From Chitinophagales bacterium (GTDB lineage Bacteria > Bacteroidota > Bacteroidia > Chitinophagales > Chitinophagaceae): a stretch of 64,000 nucleotides of DNA. The DNA is taken from NCBI GenBank assembly GCA_038222655.1, contig JBBRHM010000001.1:3350-67349 (forward strand). Reading direction: 5' to 3'. The position numbers and the translations under genes are program-made. The first letter of the stretch is position 1. Each line of letters begins with the position of its first letter. Positions 1,796 to 58,444 of this stretch are shown here, piece after piece. The notes under the pieces were generated by a model, which made no database searches, was not told the DNA's origin, and saw only the letters and a list, made by a program, of their open reading frames with translations.

Positions 1796-3022
1796 TTAAC
1801 GGAACCATCCATTTTCATGTTTGCCTTCCAATGTCATCCCTTTCCTGAGAATATATTTAGGATCAAGATTTACTGTTGCCAGGCTTTCTGCAATTAATTT
1901 TCCGGAATTTCCACCACCATATGGATTAACTGTTGCAGCACATACCGAACGGAATGCATCATCAGCAATACATTTTTTTATAGCGTTATATATTTCCTCT
2001 GCATTATAATCTGCATCAATTACATTATCTCCCCGTAACCTTCCCTGCTGGCGTGATCCGATATTGACTGTAGGACAGCCGAAAACCGGTGTTTCTTTAA
2101 TGCCGGATGATGAGTTTCCAACACAAGCTACGCGCCATCCCGGCTGCTTAGCCAATGCCAATATTCCATGATATACAAAACGACCCAATGATGCGTGCAA
2201 TTGTATATTCGGGTTATTGAGTTCTGAAGTTGTCCTCAAATCTTTTGACATGGTTTCGCCACCCGCATCGTTATTCGGGTAAGTAAGAATTACCTGTACA
2301 CCTTCATCAGCCAGTTTTATCAAGGCTTCTAAGGATGGTTGCAATTGTGAAGCACCGTCTTCAAATTCTGTGGTAACCGAATGTTGTGTAAAGAGAACAA
2401 CTGGTCTGTTCTTATCAAGCTTTAATCGTGCAATAAGATTTTCCGGTGTTTCAAATGAACCGTCTTTTATCAGGTCAATTGCAGGGAAGCCAACTGTGTG
2501 CACCCGCCATTCATCTTCACCCATAGCAAGAATACGGTTGCTTGCCTGTTGATTGGTTGTATAATGTAAGTGTGCAAGTTTTGACATGGCATGACGAACT
2601 GAATCATCCAAAGCGCCTCCTTCTGTAATATCTCCGCCTTCCACATGTGCAGTTGGAATATTCATTTGCGAACTCGTAATTACAGCGGCCAATCCTTCAA
2701 ACCTGTCGGCGTAAACAAGAAAAACATCGGGGTTCAATTCATCTAATACCGGTGTTAGGTTAAGTATACCCGAACCAATGGCGCGAGCAGTAGAAGTTCT
2801 TTTATCACCACTCATATCAATTTTCACTTCAGCATAAATATCAAACCCATCTTTTTTTATTTCTGAAATGGTAGAACCAAAATTATTGTCCAGGTGTGCG
2901 CCCGATACAATAAGGCGGTACTCAAGTAAAGGATGATTTTTAATTGCCTGTAAAATCGGGAACTGTAATCCGTATTCCGCACGGTTTCCCGAAAAAACGG
3001 CAATCACTCTTTTTTTATTCAT
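1796..3022 (-). CDS. neuC: Hydrolysing NDP-GlcNAc 2-epimerase (NeuC/LegG family)
   Basis: GNRAEYG, SGAHL, ADRFE, HVEGG, DDSVRHAMSKLAHLH, GNSSSG, NIGSRQQGR. Confidence 0.9.
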   Translation of the reverse strand: MNKKRVIAVFSGNRAEYGLQFPILQAIKNHPLLEYRLIVSGAHLDNNFGSTISEIKKDGFDIYAEVKIDMSGDKRTSTARAIGSGILNLTPVLDELNPDVFLVYADRFEGLAAVITSSQMNIPTAHVEGGDITEGGALDDSVRHAMSKLAHLHYTTNQQASNRILAMGEDEWRVHTVGFPAIDLIKDGSFETPENLIARLKLDKNRPVVLFTQHSVTTEFEDGASQLQPSLEALIKLADEGVQVILTYPNNDAGGETMSKDLRTTSELNNPNIQLHASLGRFVYHGILALAKQPGWRVACVGNSSSGIKETPVFGCPTVNIGSRQQGRLRGDNVIDADYNAEEIYNAIKKCIADDAFRSVCAATVNPYGGGNSGKLIAESLATVNLDPKYILRKGMTLEGKHENGWFR

Positions 3023-47005: not shown

Positions 47006-47566
47006 ATGCAGTTGTATATAAAAAATATGGTTTGCCCCAGATGTATTGCTTCAGTAAAACACATACTGAAGGAGTCAGGCGTTACCTATTCATCTGTTCA
47101 TTTGGGAGAGGTAAAAACGGAAACTGACCCAACAGAAAAGCAGTTAGGATTATTACAAACAAAATTATTAGCTGCAGGGTTTGAATTACTGGATGATACA
47201 AGGAAGCGACTCATCGAAAAAATAAAAACCATCATAATTGAACAGGTACATTATGATGCAGATACTAAAAAGCAAAAACTATCAGAGGTACTTTCATCGA
47301 GTCTCCGCAAAGATTATTCTTTTCTAAGTAACCTTTTTTCGGATGTGGAAGGCATTACTATTGAAAAGTATCTTATTCAACAGAAAATAGAAAGGGCCAA
47401 AGAATTAATAGTCTACAATGAACTCACTGTAAGCGAAATTGCCTTTCAACTGGGCTATACAAGCGTTTCGCATCTTTCTGCACAGTTTAAATCGGTAACC
47501 GGTCTTACGCCCACCCATTTTAAGAAGGTTGGTAATGCACATCGTAAAACACTCGATAGCATCTGA
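47006..47566 (+). CDS. AraC-family regulator with N-terminal HMA-like CxxC domain
   Basis: KNMVCPRC; C-terminal IERAKELI...SEIAFQLGYTSVSHLSAQFKSVTGLTP. Confidence 0.9.
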   Translation: MQLYIKNMVCPRCIASVKHILKESGVTYSSVHLGEVKTETDPTEKQLGLLQTKLLAAGFELLDDTRKRLIEKIKTIIIEQVHYDADTKKQKLSEVLSSSLRKDYSFLSNLFSDVEGITIEKYLIQQKIERAKELIVYNELTVSEIAFQLGYTSVSHLSAQFKSVTGLTPTHFKKVGNAHRKTLDSI

Positions 47567-47569
47567 ACC

Positions 47570-47631
47570 ATAATTCTATAACAGGTTTCCACAATTGTAT
47601 AACAGCCCCCAAAGCTGGACAGGTACCTTTG
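47570..47631 (+). promoter_or_regulatory. Tandem 21-bp-spaced direct repeat plus -7 box TACCTTTG (candidate AraC site)
   Basis: ATAATTCTATAACAG at 47570 and ACAATTGTATAACAG at 47591; TACCTTTG at 47624-47631. Confidence 0.7.
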
Positions 47632-47647
47632 TAAAATAAAAAATAGT

Positions 47648-48382
47648 ATGACACATACCTATACAGTAACCGGCATGACCTGCACAGGGTGCCAGGCAAA
47701 AGTGCAACAACTGCTATCACAAATACCCGGCATTCAACAAGTAGCTATTGATTTGGCTAAGGCTGAAGCCACCTTATCCATGGAAACGCATGTGCCTACA
47801 GAACAATTGCAGGCAGCGCTAAAAGACTATCCCAAATATCAACTCAGTGATCAAAAAGCGCCAATACCGGCACGGCTGGAATTATCGGAAGAAAAAAAAT
47901 CATGGCTAACCACTTATAAACCTATTCTTCTGATTGGTGCATACATTACAGGTATTTCATTAATAATGGAACTCGTAAATAATACCTTTCAATGGCAGTC
48001 ATGGATGGAACATTTTATGGCGGGATTCTTCCTTACTTTCTCATTCTTTAAATTATTAAATATTGAAGGGTTTGCCGATAGTTATGCCATGTATGATGTA
48101 ATTGCAAAAAAAATACGCGTATGGGGTTATATCTATCCATTTGTTGAATTAATGCTGGGTATTGCTTACCTGACATCCTTTAGTCCTGTATATACCAATA
48201 TGGTCACTTTCCTTATCATGTCGATCAGTATGATAGGTGTATTACAAAGCGTTCTTGCTAAAAGAAAAATAAAATGTGCCTGTCTGGGTGCCGTGTTTGA
48301 TTTGCCCATGAGTACTATAACCATTATTGAAGATCTTGCCATGATTGCCATGAGTGGTGCTATGCTATTAGTAATGTTATAA
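47648..48382 (+). CDS. HMA-domain plus MauE/DoxX-like membrane protein
   Basis: GMTCTGC, then TM helices and a CACLG motif. Confidence 0.85.
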   Translation: MTHTYTVTGMTCTGCQAKVQQLLSQIPGIQQVAIDLAKAEATLSMETHVPTEQLQAALKDYPKYQLSDQKAPIPARLELSEEKKSWLTTYKPILLIGAYITGISLIMELVNNTFQWQSWMEHFMAGFFLTFSFFKLLNIEGFADSYAMYDVIAKKIRVWGYIYPFVELMLGIAYLTSFSPVYTNMVTFLIMSISMIGVLQSVLAKRKIKCACLGAVFDLPMSTITIIEDLAMIAMSGAMLLVML

Positions 48383-50848: not shown

Positions 50849-50875
50849 GGGTGAGAATCAAGCTACTGAAAGTGG

Positions 50876-50936
50876 CAATCATGTAAGTTTTTAGGGCAAT
50901 TGTATAACTTTAAGAAGGCGTCAACTATTAATTTTG
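50876..50936 (+). promoter_or_regulatory. Second copy of the tandem repeat plus -7 box TAATTTTG
   Basis: CAATCATGTAAG (50876) and CAATTGTATAAC (50897), 21 bp apart; -7 box starts 32 nt after the second repeat, as at 47592/47624. Confidence 0.6.
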
Positions 50937-50945
50937 TAGTACTCC

Positions 50946-51398
50946 ATGATAACAAACAGATCAATACAGTTCAAAGCGGCTTTCCTGCTTGTTGTATTCG
51001 CATTGAATACAGTAGTAGGCTTTGCCTGTTCTGTGGGTGTGGATATGGGATTTAATACTTCACACCATGGGCCTGAATTAAAAGGCACAGTGCATATTCA
51101 TAAAGATGGAAAAAAGCATTTGCACAAATCAGGTAACGATAAACACCATCATGCTAACAAACAGGCGGCTTCAAAGAAAGATGATTGCTGCAAGGATAAG
51201 GTAATCAAATTACAAACCTCTGATAAAAGCTCTCAATACGCACAAACAGTAATTAAAGCCCCTGAATTTAACGTAAACTCCATTTTTCAAACACCGGTTT
51301 TTAATACAGTAAAGGGTGTAAGACAAAAAGAGATAGATTACTATTTTCATCCGCCGCCCCGTAATATCTACTTACACATCCAGCATTTGCTGATATGA
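50946..51398 (+). CDS. His/Cys-rich small protein with C-terminal polyproline
   Basis: Hydrophobic N-terminus, FAC, HHG..HIH..KHLH..KHHH, DDCCKD, FHPPPR. Confidence 0.7.
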   Translation: MITNRSIQFKAAFLLVVFALNTVVGFACSVGVDMGFNTSHHGPELKGTVHIHKDGKKHLHKSGNDKHHHANKQAASKKDDCCKDKVIKLQTSDKSSQYAQTVIKAPEFNVNSIFQTPVFNTVKGVRQKEIDYYFHPPPRNIYLHIQHLLI

Positions 51399-52062: not shown

Positions 52063-52536
52063 ATGAACTGGAAAAAGAAAATATTGCTTTCAGTCATAGC
52101 CGTATTTATCATTATACAATTTATACAACCTGTCCACAACACAAGCGGGCAGGTATTACCGGCAGATATCACCCAAACATTGAGTGTTCCGGATAATGTG
52201 AGAGAGATTTTTACAAAGGCCTGTAATGATTGTCATAGTAACCATACCCGGTACCCATGGTATGTATATATACAACCCATAGGATGGATGATGGAAAACC
52301 ATATTAAGAAAGGAAAAGAAAATCTGAATTTTAGTGAGTTTGGAAATTACTCAAAAAGAAAACAAGCTAATAAGCTTAGATCAATTGGAATAAGCCTTGA
52401 AGATGGGTCAATGCCGCTCTACGGATATACTATACTGCACCAAGCGGCGAGACTGAGTACAGAAGAGAAAAAAATGATTATTGCCTGGGTATCCAATACA
52501 AAAGACAGTCTTTCAAAAAACCAGTATGGAAAATGA
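52063..52536 (+). CDS. Haem-binding-domain (c-type) protein
   Basis: ACNDCHS (CxxCH), YPWY, LNFSE, MPL..Y...H. Confidence 0.82.
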   Translation: MNWKKKILLSVIAVFIIIQFIQPVHNTSGQVLPADITQTLSVPDNVREIFTKACNDCHSNHTRYPWYVYIQPIGWMMENHIKKGKENLNFSEFGNYSKRKQANKLRSIGISLEDGSMPLYGYTILHQAARLSTEEKKMIIAWVSNTKDSLSKNQYGK

Positions 52537-52607
52537 AAAAATTAAAAATAATCTTCATCAAAATTTTTAAAGCAATTTTTATCAGGAAAAAAGATTGCTG
52601 TAAATAA
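52533..52607 (+). CDS. Putative 24-aa peptide MKKLKIIFIKIFKAIFIRKKDCCK (not in track)
   Basis: ATG overlaps the upstream stop (ATGA); stop TAA 52605-52607 is 8 nt before the next ATG. Confidence 0.55.
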   Translation: MKKLKIIFIKIFKAIFIRKKDCCK

Positions 52608-52615
52608 CAGAATAT

Positions 52616-53182
52616 ATGGGAGACATACAAGCTATAATATTTGTAGTACCGGTCATTGCATTGATACTGACAAGTATATTGTATCTCTATTGTCTACATA
52701 CAGTTACCGATAAGAAAGGTTTTACTACATTCGTTTTTATAGCAGCTGCTTTAGCTTTTCTGTTAAACTTTACATGGGAAGTAATTCAAATACCGCTATA
52801 TAAAGGTTCGTCTTTTACGGCAAATCATATTGCATTTTGTGCACTGGGGTCACTCGCAGATGTGATAATGGTTTTACTTCTCTACCTGGGGTTTGCATTT
52901 ATATTTAGAAAACCATTTTGGATACAGGATGCAAGATGGCAAAAAGTAATCATACTGATTTTGATAGGTGCAATAGGGGCCATTTTATCTGAGATGCGAC
53001 ATTTATCATTAGGAAGTTGGTCCTATGATGATTCGATGCCTATCATTCCGGTTGTGAAAGTGGGTATATCACCCGTATTGCAATTTATGATTCTGCCGCT
53101 GATAATTTATCGGATAAGCTTTAACTACTCATTACTAATGAAACGAAGAAAAGAAAAGAAATTTTACTCACACCAATTATAA
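52616..53182 (+). CDS. Hypothetical multi-pass membrane protein
   Basis: About 5 TM helices, NFTWEVIQ.PLY, HIAFC, G.SP..Q. Confidence 0.65.
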   Translation: MGDIQAIIFVVPVIALILTSILYLYCLHTVTDKKGFTTFVFIAAALAFLLNFTWEVIQIPLYKGSSFTANHIAFCALGSLADVIMVLLLYLGFAFIFRKPFWIQDARWQKVIILILIGAIGAILSEMRHLSLGSWSYDDSMPIIPVVKVGISPVLQFMILPLIIYRISFNYSLLMKRRKEKKFYSHQL

Positions 53183-53184
53183 AA

Positions 53185-55251
53185 ATGGAACACAATCATC
53201 ATAAGGAAGCACCTGCCAAAACTCCCACTATGGATCATTCCGGTATGCACCATGATGCCATGCAACATAGTACCGGGCCAGGCATGGGAATGGAAGGCCA
53301 TAACCATCATGCCATGATGATTGCTGATTTTAAAAAGCGGTTTTATGTGGTGCTGATACTGACTATTCCTATCATGCTGCTATCGGCAATGATACAGCAA
53401 TTTATGGGCGTAAACTGGCAGTTTAAAGGCTCTTCCTATATACTATTCGCACTATCATCCATAGTATTCGTTTATGGCGGATGGCCTTTTTTAAAGGGGT
53501 TAGTTGATGAAGTGAAAACAAAGAATCCCGGTATGATGTTTTTAATTGGCTTTGCTATATCCGTAGCTTACATCTACAGTGTAGCTATTGTATTTGGCCT
53601 ACAGGGTATGGATTTCTTTTGGGAACTGGCCACCTTAATACTCATTATGCTTTTAGGTCACTGGATAGAAATGAAATCTGTAGCCGGAGCCTCAAAAGAA
53701 TTGGAGTTGTTAGTACAATTGATGCCGTCAGATGCGCATATGGTTATGCCTGATATGGTACATGATGTACAGACAGCTAGCCTAAAAGAAAAGGATATTA
53801 TCCTCGTAAAGCCTGGCGAAAAAGTGGCCGCGGATGGCATCATCCTTGAAGGTGAGAGTTATCTAAATGAATCTATGCTTACCGGCGAATCAAAACCGGT
53901 ACAAAAAATTAAAGGAGATAAAGTAATTGCCGGGTCAATTAATGGCAATGGTTCCATAAAAGTTACCATCTCTCATGCTGCAAAAGATTCCTATCTCTCA
54001 CAGGTAATCAAATTAGTGGAAGATGCACAAAAATCAAAATCAAAAACCCAGCTACTGGCAGATACCGCTGCAAAATGGTTAACGGTTATTGCTATTATTT
54101 CAGGCATCGCTACTTTTTTGTATTGGTTTTTAACAGGCCAGTCTCTAGCATTTTCGATGGAACGAATGGTTACGGTAATTGTAATTTGTTGCCCCCATGC
54201 TTTAGGACTCGCAGTGCCTTTAGTGGTTGCCAAATCAACCGCCCTATCTGCTAAAAACGGTTTACTCATTAAAAACCGGACAGCTTTTGAAAACGCAAGA
54301 AAAATCACCACTATCGTATTTGACAAAACGGGCACTTTAACGGTTGGGAAATTTGAAGTATCCAAAATTATTTCCCTTCAAAGCGGTGTTACAGAAAATG
54401 AAATTATACGCCTGGCTTCCGCGTTAGAGCAAAAATCGGAACATCCTATTGCTACGGGCATCCTGCAAAAAGGGAAAGATTTATCCATCGCTGTTCCTGC
54501 CACTGAAAATTTTAATGCTATTACTGGTAAAGGTGTAGAAGCTACGGTAGACGGCAAAAAGATAAGGGTAGTAAGTCCCGGCTATTTAAAAGAAAACAAT
54601 ATTTCTATCCCCGCAGAATTCACGGCCAATGATACGGAAACAGTTGTGTTTGTATTAATCAATGATGGGATGGCAGGATACATCGCCTTATCAGATCAGA
54701 TACGACCTGAATCAGCAGAAGCGATCAGTACCTTACAGAAAAATCACATCAAATCAATTTTACTAACCGGCGATAACCGCAACGTAGCAAAAACAGTGAG
54801 TGAAACATTAGGGATGGATAGCTTTATTGCCGAAGTATTGCCGCACCAGAAATTAGAAAAGATAAAAGAGCTGCAAGGAAAAGGAGAATTTGTAGCAATG
54901 ACGGGTGACGGCGTAAATGATGCACCGGCCCTTGCGCAAGCAGATGTAGGCATTGCCGTAGGCAGTGGCAGTGATATAGCTGCAGAAACAGCAGGTATTG
55001 TTTTAGTGAACAGTAATCCTAAAGATATTGTGAGTTTACTCTTATTTGGCAAAGCCACTTATAGAAAGATGATTCAAAATTTAATTTGGGCAACCGGCTA
55101 CAATATAATTGCGCTGCCATTGGCAGCCGGTGTTTTATATAAGCAGGGCATATTATTAAGTCCCGCGGCCGGTGCGGTTTTGATGACAGTAAGTACCGTA
55201 GTGGTTGCCATTAATGCAAGTATGTTAAGCGTACAAAAAAGTAAACTTTAA
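53185..55251 (+). CDS. copB: Copper-translocating P1B-3-type ATPase with His/Met-rich N-terminus
   Basis: TGES, CPH (ICCPHALGLA), DKTGT, SEHP, GDGVNDAPAL, YN and MxxST TM motifs. Confidence 0.93.
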   Translation: MEHNHHKEAPAKTPTMDHSGMHHDAMQHSTGPGMGMEGHNHHAMMIADFKKRFYVVLILTIPIMLLSAMIQQFMGVNWQFKGSSYILFALSSIVFVYGGWPFLKGLVDEVKTKNPGMMFLIGFAISVAYIYSVAIVFGLQGMDFFWELATLILIMLLGHWIEMKSVAGASKELELLVQLMPSDAHMVMPDMVHDVQTASLKEKDIILVKPGEKVAADGIILEGESYLNESMLTGESKPVQKIKGDKVIAGSINGNGSIKVTISHAAKDSYLSQVIKLVEDAQKSKSKTQLLADTAAKWLTVIAIISGIATFLYWFLTGQSLAFSMERMVTVIVICCPHALGLAVPLVVAKSTALSAKNGLLIKNRTAFENARKITTIVFDKTGTLTVGKFEVSKIISLQSGVTENEIIRLASALEQKSEHPIATGILQKGKDLSIAVPATENFNAITGKGVEATVDGKKIRVVSPGYLKENNISIPAEFTANDTETVVFVLINDGMAGYIALSDQIRPESAEAISTLQKNHIKSILLTGDNRNVAKTVSETLGMDSFIAEVLPHQKLEKIKELQGKGEFVAMTGDGVNDAPALAQADVGIAVGSGSDIAAETAGIVLVNSNPKDIVSLLLFGKATYRKMIQNLIWATGYNIIALPLAAGVLYKQGILLSPAAGAVLMTVSTVVVAINASMLSVQKSKL

Positions 55252-55318: not shown

Positions 55319-58300
55319 GTGAAAACAGAAAGCAACATAAAAAAAATAATTATATCGATACTATTTTTTGGGGCATGTTCTTTTGTATCTGCACAGGATA
55401 TGAAAAGAATGGATATGTCTAAAATGGAAACTACAAAAAAGGTACAGCCAACAACCTATACCTGTGTCATGCATCCGGAAATCCATGCAACCAAGCCAGG
55501 TAATTGTCCAAAATGCGGGATGAAACTGATAAAAGAAAAACCAAAAGTCGCCTCCAGGCCAGAAGCTAAAAAAATGGACGGAATGCAAATGCCGAAAGAT
55601 CCCGTTAAGGTAAAAAAGATGGATAATATGGATGGGGTGAAAATGGATGATATGCAAATTTCTTCCACTAATAATCAATCTCAGCCGGTAACGTATACAT
55701 GTCCCATGCACCCGGAGATTCATGCCAGCAAACCGGGTAATTGTCCAAAATGCGGAATGAAACTAGTTAAAGAAAAACCCAAGGCTGCCGCTCCAGAATC
55801 AAAAATGCAACAGCAGGATGGCATGCAAATGCCCATAAAAAACGATTCAAAAAAGATGGATAATATGGAAGGGATGAAGATGGACAATATGCAAGTGCCT
55901 TCCACCAATAACCCATCTCAGCCGGTAACGTATACCTGCCCCATGCACCCGGAGATTCACGCCGGTAAACCCGGCAATTGTCCAAAATGCGGAATGAAAC
56001 TGGTTAAAGAAAAACCGAAGGCTACCCCTACCGAATCAAAAATGCAACAGCATGATGGCATGCAAATGACCATGAAAAACGATTCAAAAAAGATGGATCA
56101 TATGGAAGGAATGAAACTGGATGATATGGGCCATATGGAAATGTCAAAAGCATTACTTGGACCCATAAAAACAATTTTCAACCCTACCCCTCCTCATACG
56201 GTGCGTTACGATTTATATATACGGGACACAACCGTAGTTTTTGGAAAAAAACAAAAACGGGCCATTGCCGTAAATGGAAGTATACCTATGCCCACGCTTA
56301 CTTTTACCGAAGGCGATACTGCTGAGATTTATGTACACAATGAACTGAATGAGGAAACATCCCTGCACTGGCATGGTCTTTTTCTTCCTAATAGATACGA
56401 TGGCGTACCCAATCTCACCCAAATGCCTATTAAACCTCATACAACACATCTCTATACATTCCCAATCATTCAGCACGGAACGCATTGGTACCATAGTCAT
56501 ACCGGATTACAGGAACAGATTGGCATGTATGGCGCTTTTATCATGAATAAAAGAAAGGAATGGGATATTCCCACCATCCCATTAGTAATTAGTGAATGGG
56601 CAGATATGAAGCCAGAAGAAATTCATAGAAGTCTTCATAATGCCACCGATTGGTTTGCTATACAAAAAGGAACTACCCAAAGTTATACAGAAGCTATACA
56701 AAAGGGCCAATTAAAAACCAAGCTTACCAATGAATGGAAACGGATGAATGCAATGGATGTAAGTGATGTGTTTTATGATGCATTTCTGATAAATGGCAAA
56801 AATCAAAATGAACAGCCGCAATTTAAGGCAGGCGATAAAGTAAGATTACGGATAGCAAACGGTGGAGCATCAGATTATTTCTGGTTAACCTATGCGGGTG
56901 GTAAAATAACGGTTGTAGCCAATGATGGTAATGATGTAGAACCAGTTGATGTAGACAGGCTGATTATAGCCGTATCCGAAACATATGATGTAGTGGTAAC
57001 CATTCCGGAGAACAAGCGCTATGAATTTTTGGTAACACCCGAGGACCGCACAAAATCAGCATCGCTATGGTTAGGCAGCGGGGAAAAAGTACCTGCTATA
57101 AAGTTGCCAAAACTTAAATATTTCGCCGGCATGAAGATGATGAATGAAATGATGGATATGAAAGGCAACATGATACAAATGGAAGGTATGCAAATGAGCA
57201 ACCAGGTAATGGATATGAATACGGTTATGTACCCTGAAATAACAGGACCTGAAAATGCAAAAGATATCATGAAATCAGAGCAGATGCAGGGAATGAAAAT
57301 GGCTACTCCTTCTTCAAGTAGCACCAATACAATGAAAATGGAGACTGGTAAACAGATGCAGATGAATAATGGCAGCCACAGTATGGCTGGGATGGATATG
57401 AGTGCTGATATTGCTGATATAGTAACGCTTAATTATGGGATGCTTCGTGCCCCTGACAAAACAACGCTGCCTTCCGGTCCGTTAAAAGAATTAAAATTTG
57501 ATTTAACCGGAAATATGAACCGCTACGTGTGGACATTAGATAATAAAACAGTGTCAGAGTCGGATAAGATTTTAATTAAAAAAGGTGAAAATGTAAGAAT
57601 GATCATTTTCAACAATAGTATGATGCGGCATCCTATGCACCTTCATGGCCATGACTTCAGGGTATTAAACGGACAGGGCGAAAATGCGCCGATGAAAAAT
57701 GTGATAGACATAATGCCCATGGAAAGAGATACCCTTGAATTTGCTGCTACCGAAAGTGGTGATTGGTTTTTTCACTGCCATATTTTATACCATATGATGA
57801 GTGGCATGGGCAGGATATTCAGTTATGAAAATTCGCCCCCTAACCCGGAAATACCTGACCCCAAATATGCCACGCGTATGCTCTTCAAAGATGACCGAGA
57901 AGCACACTTCATGGTAAAAGCAGGTATAGAAAGCAATGGCTTCGATGGTGAAGCCATGCTCGCAAATACACGCTGGAAATTAAGTACCATGTGGCACCTG
58001 GGGCATCAGGACATGCATGGCTATGAAAGTGAAACCATGATTGGCCGTTACCTGGGTCGTATGCAATGGTGGTTTCCCTATATAGGTTTTGATTACCATT
58101 ATAAAGTGGAAGGCGGCCCCAAAAATATATTTGGTAATGAAGAAAAAAATTGGTTAGGCCAAATGAGTAATAAAAATAATCGCAAAACACTTGTAGCCGG
58201 TGTAGCCTATACCTTACCGATGCTGATTATTGCAGATGGTCGCATAGATGGTGATGGCAAGTTCCGATTTCAGGTAAGCAGAGAAGGTATTACCCTTACC

Positions 58301-58444
58301 CCCAGAATACGTTTCAACTGGATGCTGAATACTGACAAGGAATATGCTGCGGGCTTACGGTATACGGTTACCAAATACTTTTCTCTTTCAACCCACTATG
58401 ACAGTGATATGGGACTGGGAGCCGGCATTACTATAACTTATTAA
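55319..58444 (+). CDS. Multicopper oxidase with three N-terminal HMBD/Met-rich repeats and a C-terminal barrel-like domain
   Basis: HWHG, WYHSH, HPMHLHGH, HCHILYHM copper motifs; signal peptide; amphipathic-strand tail ending in Tyr. Confidence 0.9.
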   Translation: MKTESNIKKIIISILFFGACSFVSAQDMKRMDMSKMETTKKVQPTTYTCVMHPEIHATKPGNCPKCGMKLIKEKPKVASRPEAKKMDGMQMPKDPVKVKKMDNMDGVKMDDMQISSTNNQSQPVTYTCPMHPEIHASKPGNCPKCGMKLVKEKPKAAAPESKMQQQDGMQMPIKNDSKKMDNMEGMKMDNMQVPSTNNPSQPVTYTCPMHPEIHAGKPGNCPKCGMKLVKEKPKATPTESKMQQHDGMQMTMKNDSKKMDHMEGMKLDDMGHMEMSKALLGPIKTIFNPTPPHTVRYDLYIRDTTVVFGKKQKRAIAVNGSIPMPTLTFTEGDTAEIYVHNELNEETSLHWHGLFLPNRYDGVPNLTQMPIKPHTTHLYTFPIIQHGTHWYHSHTGLQEQIGMYGAFIMNKRKEWDIPTIPLVISEWADMKPEEIHRSLHNATDWFAIQKGTTQSYTEAIQKGQLKTKLTNEWKRMNAMDVSDVFYDAFLINGKNQNEQPQFKAGDKVRLRIANGGASDYFWLTYAGGKITVVANDGNDVEPVDVDRLIIAVSETYDVVVTIPENKRYEFLVTPEDRTKSASLWLGSGEKVPAIKLPKLKYFAGMKMMNEMMDMKGNMIQMEGMQMSNQVMDMNTVMYPEITGPENAKDIMKSEQMQGMKMATPSSSSTNTMKMETGKQMQMNNGSHSMAGMDMSADIADIVTLNYGMLRAPDKTTLPSGPLKELKFDLTGNMNRYVWTLDNKTVSESDKILIKKGENVRMIIFNNSMMRHPMHLHGHDFRVLNGQGENAPMKNVIDIMPMERDTLEFAATESGDWFFHCHILYHMMSGMGRIFSYENSPPNPEIPDPKYATRMLFKDDREAHFMVKAGIESNGFDGEAMLANTRWKLSTMWHLGHQDMHGYESETMIGRYLGRMQWWFPYIGFDYHYKVEGGPKNIFGNEEKNWLGQMSNKNNRKTLVAGVAYTLPMLIIADGRIDGDGKFRFQVSREGITLTPRIRFNWMLNTDKEYAAGLRYTVTKYFSLSTHYDSDMGLGAGITITY
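55445..56129 (+). repeat. Three intragenic tandem repeats, 237-bp (79-aa) period
   Basis: CAGCC anchors at 55445, 55682, 55919; each unit is YTC.MHPEIHA.KPGNCPKCGMKL plus a Met-rich linker; third unit truncated. Confidence 0.9.

Follow-up and report, generated by a model that had tools for sequence, protein, structure and literature searches.

Vicinal Cys-Cys sites that hand over metal are found in the mer system, both in the membrane pairs of MerT and MerF and in the C-terminal Cys-Cys tail of MerA. Very short proteins can act at membranes, and SpoVM is a 26-residue amphipathic helix that lies in the membrane surface. Gene callers skip open reading frames (ORFs) of less than about 30 codons, and the copper-resistance clusters of Bacteroidota are poorly understood. 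In Bordetella, CruR (a DUF2946 protein) is the product of a copper-responsive upstream ORF that senses copper through the cysteines of its nascent chain (PMC9426467).

Here we analyze a short ORF (sORF) of 24 codons that ends in Cys-Cys-Lys and lies in a copper/heavy-metal island of a Chitinophagales bacterium. The window is the whole stretch of DNA that was analyzed, 64,000 nucleotides long, and positions refer to it.

The Reading Frame and Its Island

The island contains, in this order, VIT1, the AraC regulator, MauE-HMA, a 131-aa HYC_CC_PP-like gene, HMBD, HMA, a 269-aa gene, HYC_CC_PP (the 50946 protein), DUF3347, Haem_bd, the sORF, a 188-aa membrane protein, a P1B ATPase, an HMBD-multicopper oxidase (MCO), and DUF305 (Table 1). 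A first-pass annotation of this DNA had placed the sORF exactly in the gap between two genes, and it does fill that gap: its ATG (52533–52535) overlaps the TGA of Haem_bd (52534–52536) in an ATGA, and the next gene begins at 52616, 8 nt past the sORF stop. The Cys-Cys motif that the peptide was said to have in common with the 50946 protein is indeed present there, and HYC_CC_PP members have in common K-[G/D/N]-C-C-[K/N/H]-D-[E/K]. There is no copy of the sORF at the MauE-HMA boundary of the window; elsewhere, a 27-aa subfamily overlaps the MauE-HMA stop.

Table 1. Coordinates of the sORF and of neighboring genes in the window
Feature	Position	Strand	Remarks
24-aa microprotein gene (island subfamily A)	52533..52607	+	translates to MKKLKIIFIKIFKAIFIRKKDCCK, then stop
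Haem_bd gene (PF14376)	52063..52536	+	stop overlaps sORF start
188-aa multi-pass membrane protein, no Pfam family	52616..53182	+	8 nt 3′ of sORF
P1B-type ATPase, N-terminus His/Met-rich	53185..55251	+	
HMBD-multicopper oxidase	55319..58444	+	homolog in G039 fused to sORF peptide
HYC_CC_PP family protein (NCBIfam)	50946..51398	+	motif KKDDCCKDK
AraC-type regulator and MauE-HMA membrane protein	47006..48382	+	

Residues N51, W54, E55, Q58, H71, C75, D82, E126, and H129 are invariant among the more than 360 homologs of the 188-aa membrane protein, whose sole match is a weak one to a lycopene-cyclase domain (E = 0.011). The protein was not found in 60 related genomes, and for this reason the island of the window was probably acquired horizontally. 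A single-protein scan of the genome contigs gave no match. At two other loci (L004 and L005, around 1600–1740), a deletion took out DUF3347 and most of Haem_bd, and the last few codons of Haem_bd remain ahead of an intact sORF.

The 10 kb around the sORF contain 128 ORFs of 20 aa or more. An ORF of 24 codons is thus no evidence by itself, and the case for the sORF therefore rests on its comparison with other genomes.

Evidence for Coding

The first-pass annotation proposed a microprotein, to be checked by searching the copper clusters of other genomes for a conserved sORF with a terminal Cys-Cys. Such sORFs are found, and cross-genome comparison and dN/dS values identify a genuine conserved gene with an invariant Cys-Cys. 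The loci with the closest relatives of the 188-aa membrane protein (L002–L007) have the same sORF, with mostly synonymous changes. For example, the sORFs of the window and of L006 differ at 18 nucleotides, distributed 4/2/12 over the three codon positions, which amounts to 10 synonymous and four nonsynonymous codon changes, between flanks that are not alignable. In all, more than 130 distinct nucleotide versions encode peptides of 22–28 aa with the tail KK-x-Cys-Cys-(K/R)-stop, and the lengths have modes at 24 and 27 among the pattern matches. The NG86 dN/dS is 0.14 in the 24-aa class (n = 33) and 0.16 in the 27-aa class (n = 60), with dS of 1.0–1.6 in both, i.e., with synonymous sites close to saturation. 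It drops to 0.04 in the C-terminal 12 residues, against about 0.4 at the N-terminus.

The metagenome set was retrieved with a degenerate DNA pattern that fixes the last ten residues. Since the tail is thereby imposed by the search, weight must be put on the positions left free. The N-terminal half, outside the pattern, has a dN/dS of 0.39–0.47. The matches listed include 107 distinct tails; among 106 distinct tails of these matches, the free position −7 is Arg in 89, using all six codons, the free position −11 is Ala in 80, using all four codons, and position −12 is Lys or Arg in 102. The pattern also permits TGG in place of the stop, which never occurs among the matches listed. All 60 mid- and low-scoring matches of a profile (see following) that were fetched retain KK-x-CC, one residue, and a stop. 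At the level of nucleotide substitutions, these comparisons demonstrate purifying selection on the amino-acid sequence of the family, and we are nearly certain that the sORF belongs to a real protein-coding family.

Distribution and Annotation

The degenerate C-terminus pattern matched at least 120 metagenome contigs. Of 401 genomes sampled across the phylum it matched six, all in Chitinophagaceae, and the reversed pattern, used as a control, gave none. A profile built from 46 peptides and free of the DNA constraint finds the family in 94 of 251 Chitinophagaceae genomes (69 of 151 genera) and also in four other families of Bacteroidia, again in metal contexts. The copper-resistance clusters with the gene are those of soil and freshwater Bacteroidota. 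One carrier of the family, the cultured Flavisolibacter ginsenosidimutans, encodes MTTTSKIGNIFLRILKAIFLRKKDCCK.

The microprotein family is new and uncatalogued. No NCBIfam model matches it, four representative peptides have no Pfam match at E ≤ 10, and none of ten exact peptides occurs among 15 billion catalogued protein sequences. Among 5.8 billion protein clusters there are only two relatives, both N-terminally extended "hypothetical proteins," and a literature search found no paper with the family motif. Hence, a component of over a third of Chitinophagaceae genomes and of hundreds of environmental contigs has so far been wholly unannotated.

Six pattern matches next to PTS-EIIC (INYTIFLKKKECCK, without a start codon) were set aside as chance matches. 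In the gut-metagenome loci L093, L112, L140, L166, and L167, the sequence, likewise next to PTS-EIIC genes, ends in INYTIFLKKKECCK and a stop, with no start codon in range; these matches are taken to be due to chance or to represent the C-terminus of an unrelated protein. The contig of locus L044 (QFQQ01000060.1), labelled as a Citrobacter freundii metagenome-assembled genome, has the same regional ORFs as L043 (LGYU01000016.1), from Chitinophagaceae bacterium PMP191F, and is probably mis-binned.

Gene Neighborhoods

The link to copper suggested in the first pass is borne out by the neighborhoods: 23 of the 30 best genome loci have a metal gene within 1.5 kb of the sORF, and 63 of the 114 metagenome loci listed, many of them on short contigs, have one within 3.5 kb. 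Its two more specific ideas, an accessory subunit of the ATPase or of the adjacent 188-aa membrane protein, do not hold up in general. An ATPase gene comes next in only 11 of about 112 loci, many sORF loci have no ATPase within 3.5 kb, and the sORF lies upstream in only six of the 84 fetched loci of the 188-aa protein family. Outside the window, an ATPase gene directly follows the sORF at 7–10 nt in eight loci, and the sORF stands 7–12 nt ahead of ATPase or MCO genes in about 15.

In metal islands the sORF stands at the boundaries of modules. These are Haem_bd, sORF, then ATPase or MCO (about 20 loci, with the 24-aa form); AraC, MauE-HMA, then sORF (about 19 loci, with the 27-aa form); sORF, then HYC_CC_PP, DUF3347, and HMBD (about 18 loci); HMA, the 269-aa gene, sORF, then a convergent gene (about seven loci); and a CopZ-like HMA followed by the sORF. 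The 24-aa subfamily usually has Haem_bd upstream, at a gap of −8 to +11 nt (18 loci), and the corresponding gaps are −8 to −1 nt after MauE-HMA and −1 to +6 nt after the 269-aa gene. The sORF is translationally coupled to the preceding gene, whichever gene that is. On its other side the gap varies between 4 and 361 nt, and 27 of 112 loci have the downstream gene on the opposite strand, sometimes 0–16 nt away. HYC_CC_PP genes are preceded by a recurrent spacer, about 90 nt long, with a TTGACAttGTACAAT-like motif and, after it, a Bacteroidota −7 box (TAnnTTTG), which makes the spacer promoter-like. The tight upstream gap, the variable downstream gap, and the promoter-like spacer together indicate that the sORF typically closes the unit that precedes it, as its last cistron, and does not serve as a leader for the following one.

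The TTGACAttGTACAAT-like motif with TAnnTTTG is seen in spacers 3′ of the sORF in L089, L106, L144, L171, and others (compare positions 50849–50945 of the window). The motif may be an operator of the HMA-AraC regulator.

The family also has neighborhoods of another kind. In a higher-GC lineage the sORF follows an ACP gene beside a SNF2-associated gene, often before an M13 peptidase, and in six loci it precedes a Na+/H+ exchanger that itself comes after a CDF transporter. Because these contexts (ACP/SNF2, M13 peptidase, and Na+/H+ exchanger), as well as that of a 23-aa chromosomal form (see following), are not obviously related to metals, the ancestral function of the family may be other than metal.

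Overlap with hscB

The commonest form in genomes is a 23-aa subfamily, M.LLKK.W.II[RK]K.[FL]LPKK[S/D/N]CC[K/R], which is found without metal neighbors at a fixed chromosomal site: a methyltransferase (+), an AlaDh/PNT-like gene (−), and then HscB (+) or nothing. At sites with HscB, the whole sORF falls within the 3′ end of hscB, in the +1 frame, so that its tail KK.CCK-stop is an alternative reading of HscB ...EKELLQVK.... Twenty-one distinct free-standing copies occupy the same site; in these the sORF is intact, the hscB frame is broken or deleted, and the gap to the divergent neighbor goes down to 26–125 nt. Diversity among the free-standing copies is 0.35, 0.19, and 0.62 at sORF codon positions 1, 2, and 3, and their dN/dS is 0.20 in the sORF frame, compared with 1.35 in the dead hscB frame. 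Among nested copies the values are 0.23 and 0.69, respectively, so the sORF frame seems to be under the tighter constraint there too. In several of the genomes surveyed, the microprotein is kept and hscB is nowhere to be found.

In an unbiased sample of hscB genes from Chitinophagaceae genomes, 56 of 110 have an intact nested 23-aa ORF in the +1 frame, and these genes group in a clade characterized by ...IYEPVK...EKELLQVK.... In the sample, synonymous codon usage of hscB is skewed wherever the sORF needs it. The hscB Tyr that provides the sORF ATG is encoded by TAT in 54 of 55 genes (background 0.69), each Leu that contributes to TGC-TGC is NTG in 68 of 78 cases (background 0.51), and the residue that provides the sORF stop is encoded by GTA or GTG in 57 of 57 cases when it is Val (background 0.71) and by ATA in 15 of 20 when it is Ile (background 0.42). 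The p-values of these skews range from 3e-3 to 2e-11, and those for Tyr, Leu, and Val from 3e-8 to 2e-11, with genes treated as independent, i.e., ignoring shared ancestry. Synonymous codon choice in hscB thus protects the start, the Cys-Cys, and the stop of the nested sORF. About 16 resolvable hscB genes from four other families of Bacteroidia have no nested ORF, though their C-termini are homologous.

The genome of the window has its own nested copy, MNRWKRLLQIIRKVLLPKKNCCR, in the hscB of contig 25 (about 2509–3003, minus strand; locus L446), which the genome-wide profile search at E ≤ 0.01 missed. The distribution of hscB itself is patchy, with the gene in 124 of 251 Chitinophagaceae genomes and in 30 of 301 genomes across the class.

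A frame artifact as the source of the 23-aa subfamily is ruled out by the free-standing copies and by the unbiased codon tests. A functional link to Fe-S, which the adjacency of HscB brings to mind, was given less weight, since genomes without any hscB still have the peptide. The family probably originated by overprinting hscB. Overprinting would have taken place within Chitinophagaceae, and would have been followed by survival past the loss of hscB, duplication into metal islands, and spread to other families.

Fusion to a Multicopper Oxidase

In one genome of the same order (G039), there is no stop after CCK, and the frame runs through MKENIIKISKRILNFLKKIFKAIFIREKECCK-TVLFFLSITITQNLLAQ-KVVHYDL... 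into a multicopper oxidase that has no start codon of its own. As the peptide is fused in frame to an oxidase without its own start, its sequence must be translated in G039. At unfused loci, the oxidase begins 6–31 nt past the sORF stop and has its own signal peptide. In the fusion, the peptide takes the place of the n-region ahead of the hydrophobic core in the signal peptide of the oxidase, in a single genome with two near-identical copies. The n-region of a signal peptide is the part that stays cytoplasmic. The two copies (L249 and L250; G039:C2 near 895,280 and 7,260) are near-identical ATPase-MCO pairs, and the few differences between them are located in the peptide part.

Peptide Properties and Proposed Mechanism

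The family has a common architecture, an amphipathic helix of 12–17 residues followed by ...[R/H/P]-K-K-x-Cys-Cys-[K/R]-stop, and a net charge of +4 to +8 (+8 for the window peptide). The Lys/hydrophobic helical periodicity noted in the first pass is not significant for the window peptide alone (z = 0.49, p = 0.30); it does hold across the family. When the RKK cluster is included, the hydrophobic-moment test is not significant, whereas for the helix body alone the family as a whole gives a clear signal: the moment has its peak at 90–100 degrees, with a mean of 0.49 and a mean z of 1.86, and 99% of 117 peptides exceed their own shuffles. The longest apolar or uncharged run is at most nine residues in 114 of the 117 peptides. 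The sole chemistry that never varies is the vicinal dithiol, set one residue before the C-terminus.

Given that the peptide has neither a signal sequence nor an apolar run that would span a membrane, we place it at the cytoplasmic face of the inner membrane. The helix would lie along that face and present its C-terminal vicinal dithiol, which would bind Cu(I) or another soft metal. The peptide might then act as a metal buffer at the membrane surface or pass the metal on to export or detoxification proteins, and the island copies (24 and 27 aa) would be paralogs of the chromosomal form recruited for metal stress. Binding of Cu(I) or a soft metal is favored because the only invariant chemistry is the Cys-Cys, in a K-x-CC-K setting like that of the HYC_CC_PP proteins of the same operons. 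The Cu(I)-thiolate mechanism at the membrane surface, suggested by the invariant Cys-Cys and by gene neighborhood, is put forward tentatively.

A fuller scenario, plausible although just short of probable in our estimation, joins this role to the history of the gene. An ancestor of Chitinophagaceae would have gained the ORF de novo in the +1 frame at the 3′ end of its hscB, the hscB codons would have been bent to keep it, and it would have outlived hscB, been copied free into copper operons and from there into other families of Bacteroidia, and once have become the n-region of an MCO. The site of action of its dithiol would be the inner membrane face, where the copper poisoning of iron-sulfur assembly and the export of copper meet. 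For the statement as a whole, that of a translated cationic microprotein family with an origin in hscB overprinting, recruitment into copper operons, and a Cu(I) role at the membrane surface, our confidence leans to its being correct, if by a modest amount. The peptide is short enough to be synthesized and at least one cultured carrier exists, which makes Cu(I) binding and membrane association directly testable.

Alternative Explanations

The peptide could instead be a trans-acting membrane microprotein for which metal binding is not the main job: it would modulate a larger membrane protein or sense the state of the membrane, and its Cys pair would serve as a redox switch or in disulfide dimerization. 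This would fit the variety of upstream partners (Haem_bd, MauE-HMA, u269, HMA71, ACP, and HscB), the fact that subfamilies track a partner of their own (the 24-aa form after Haem_bd and the 27-aa form after MauE-HMA, MauE-type proteins being linked to disulfide chemistry), and the chromosomal form without metal neighbors. However, most such regulators have a transmembrane-length apolar run, which is absent here, the one invariant feature is the Cys-Cys, whose K-x-CC-K context recurs in HYC_CC_PP proteins, and the enrichment in copper islands is strong; we therefore consider this role rather unlikely. A cis-acting, copper-sensing leader or arrest peptide, in which a nascent Cys-Cys binds copper at the ribosome and controls the genes behind it, is clearly improbable, even if CruR provides a precedent (PMC9426467). 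The far stronger constraint on the C-terminus than on the N-terminus (0.04 versus 0.4), as in arrest peptides, and the roughly 15 sORFs closely ahead of ATPase or MCO genes point in this direction. Against it stand the 27 of 112 downstream genes on the opposite strand, some of them 0–16 nt off, the promoter-like spacers between the sORF and HYC_CC_PP operons, the tight coupling upstream but not downstream, and a length fixed at 23, 24, or 27 residues. The sORF also occurs as a lone chromosomal gene and as the in-frame N-terminal part of an oxidase, and it has no RAPP/PP arrest motif, signal peptide, or CXXC. Terminators and conserved structure, sought in the window as signs of a leader or attenuator, were not found.

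With a charge of +4 to +8, an amphipathic helix, and 22–28 residues, the peptides resemble antimicrobial peptides, and one could think of a cationic membrane-active toxin (a type I toxin or a bacteriocin). This is very improbable, as the neighborhoods show no recurring export, immunity, or antisense partner, the sORF is embedded in metal operons and co-oriented with them, and conservation lies in the Cys-Cys tail and not in the helix. Short ORFs are abundant, and the local RNA fold at the sORF has z = −2.2, so that the frame might be conserved through an RNA or DNA element, or by chance, and not be a gene at all. Yet third-position variation dominates, Arg uses all six codons, and the reversed pattern gave no match against six for the forward one. 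An RNA element is ruled out by the absence of any Rfam match for the sORF region and by an internal hairpin without covariation (7.86 of 10 pairs across the family versus 7.85 in a column-shuffled control). The reading that there is no gene is effectively refuted by the substitution pattern.

Comparison with Known Systems

The HYC_CC_PP proteins (NF047658), and CopL/DUF2946-like Cys-motif proteins from copper operons, are found in the same operons as the sORF, often as the next gene, and share with it a basic K-x-Cys-Cys-K motif. However, they are 130–150 aa long and have a hydrophobic N-terminal signal or anchor, as well as HYC and PP motifs, whereas the sORF peptide has no match to the HMM and no signal peptide, and ends one residue past the Cys-Cys. 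CruR resembles the sORF in being a small Cys-motif ORF of copper-related operons. It differs by its place at the head of the operon, by a CXXC and a C-terminal RAPP arrest motif, and by its action in cis via Rho. The sORF usually ends an operon or sits inside it, coupled upstream at −8 to +11 nt, and also occurs alone or fused; its tail is KK-x-CC-K/R-stop, and Pro is found only as LPKK in some subfamilies, not at the C-terminus. Homology to DUF2946 (PF11162) was not found in Pfam with four representative peptides at E ≤ 10. HMA/CopZ domains (PF00403) are ferredoxin-like folds of about 65 aa with MxCxxC, in contrast to 24 aa and no Pfam match here. The single-pass small subunits and regulators of P-type ATPases (KdpF, MgtS/MgtR, and sarcolipin type) would imply an apolar transmembrane helix of about 18 residues or more, which the peptide lacks, and a linkage to the ATPase gene that is found in 11 of about 112 loci.

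As for mechanism, the mer system offers a likeness in its vicinal dithiols, which shuttle a soft metal on a flexible end or at a membrane face, but it handles another metal with much larger proteins that have no sequence relationship to the sORF. SpoVM, KdpF, MgtS, AcrZ, and MntS are, like the sORF product, peptides of 20–50 residues that act at the membrane, but none has a Cys-Cys tail or homology to the sORF. Moreover, KdpF, AcrZ, and MgtS are transmembrane, whereas the sORF peptide is too polar and too short to span the bilayer.

The 23-aa form has the hallmarks of overprinted genes, i.e., an ORF in an alternative frame of an older gene, kept across species, with constrained synonymous sites in the host gene. 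We know of no described bacterial case in which an overprinted gene has outlived its host and has free paralogs that were recruited elsewhere, and a literature search found none. The difference here is that the second gene does outlive hscB and has free-standing paralogs in other operons. The overlap with hscB is thus a rare bacterial case in which gene birth by overprinting, escape from the host gene, and recruitment would all be readable from extant genomes.
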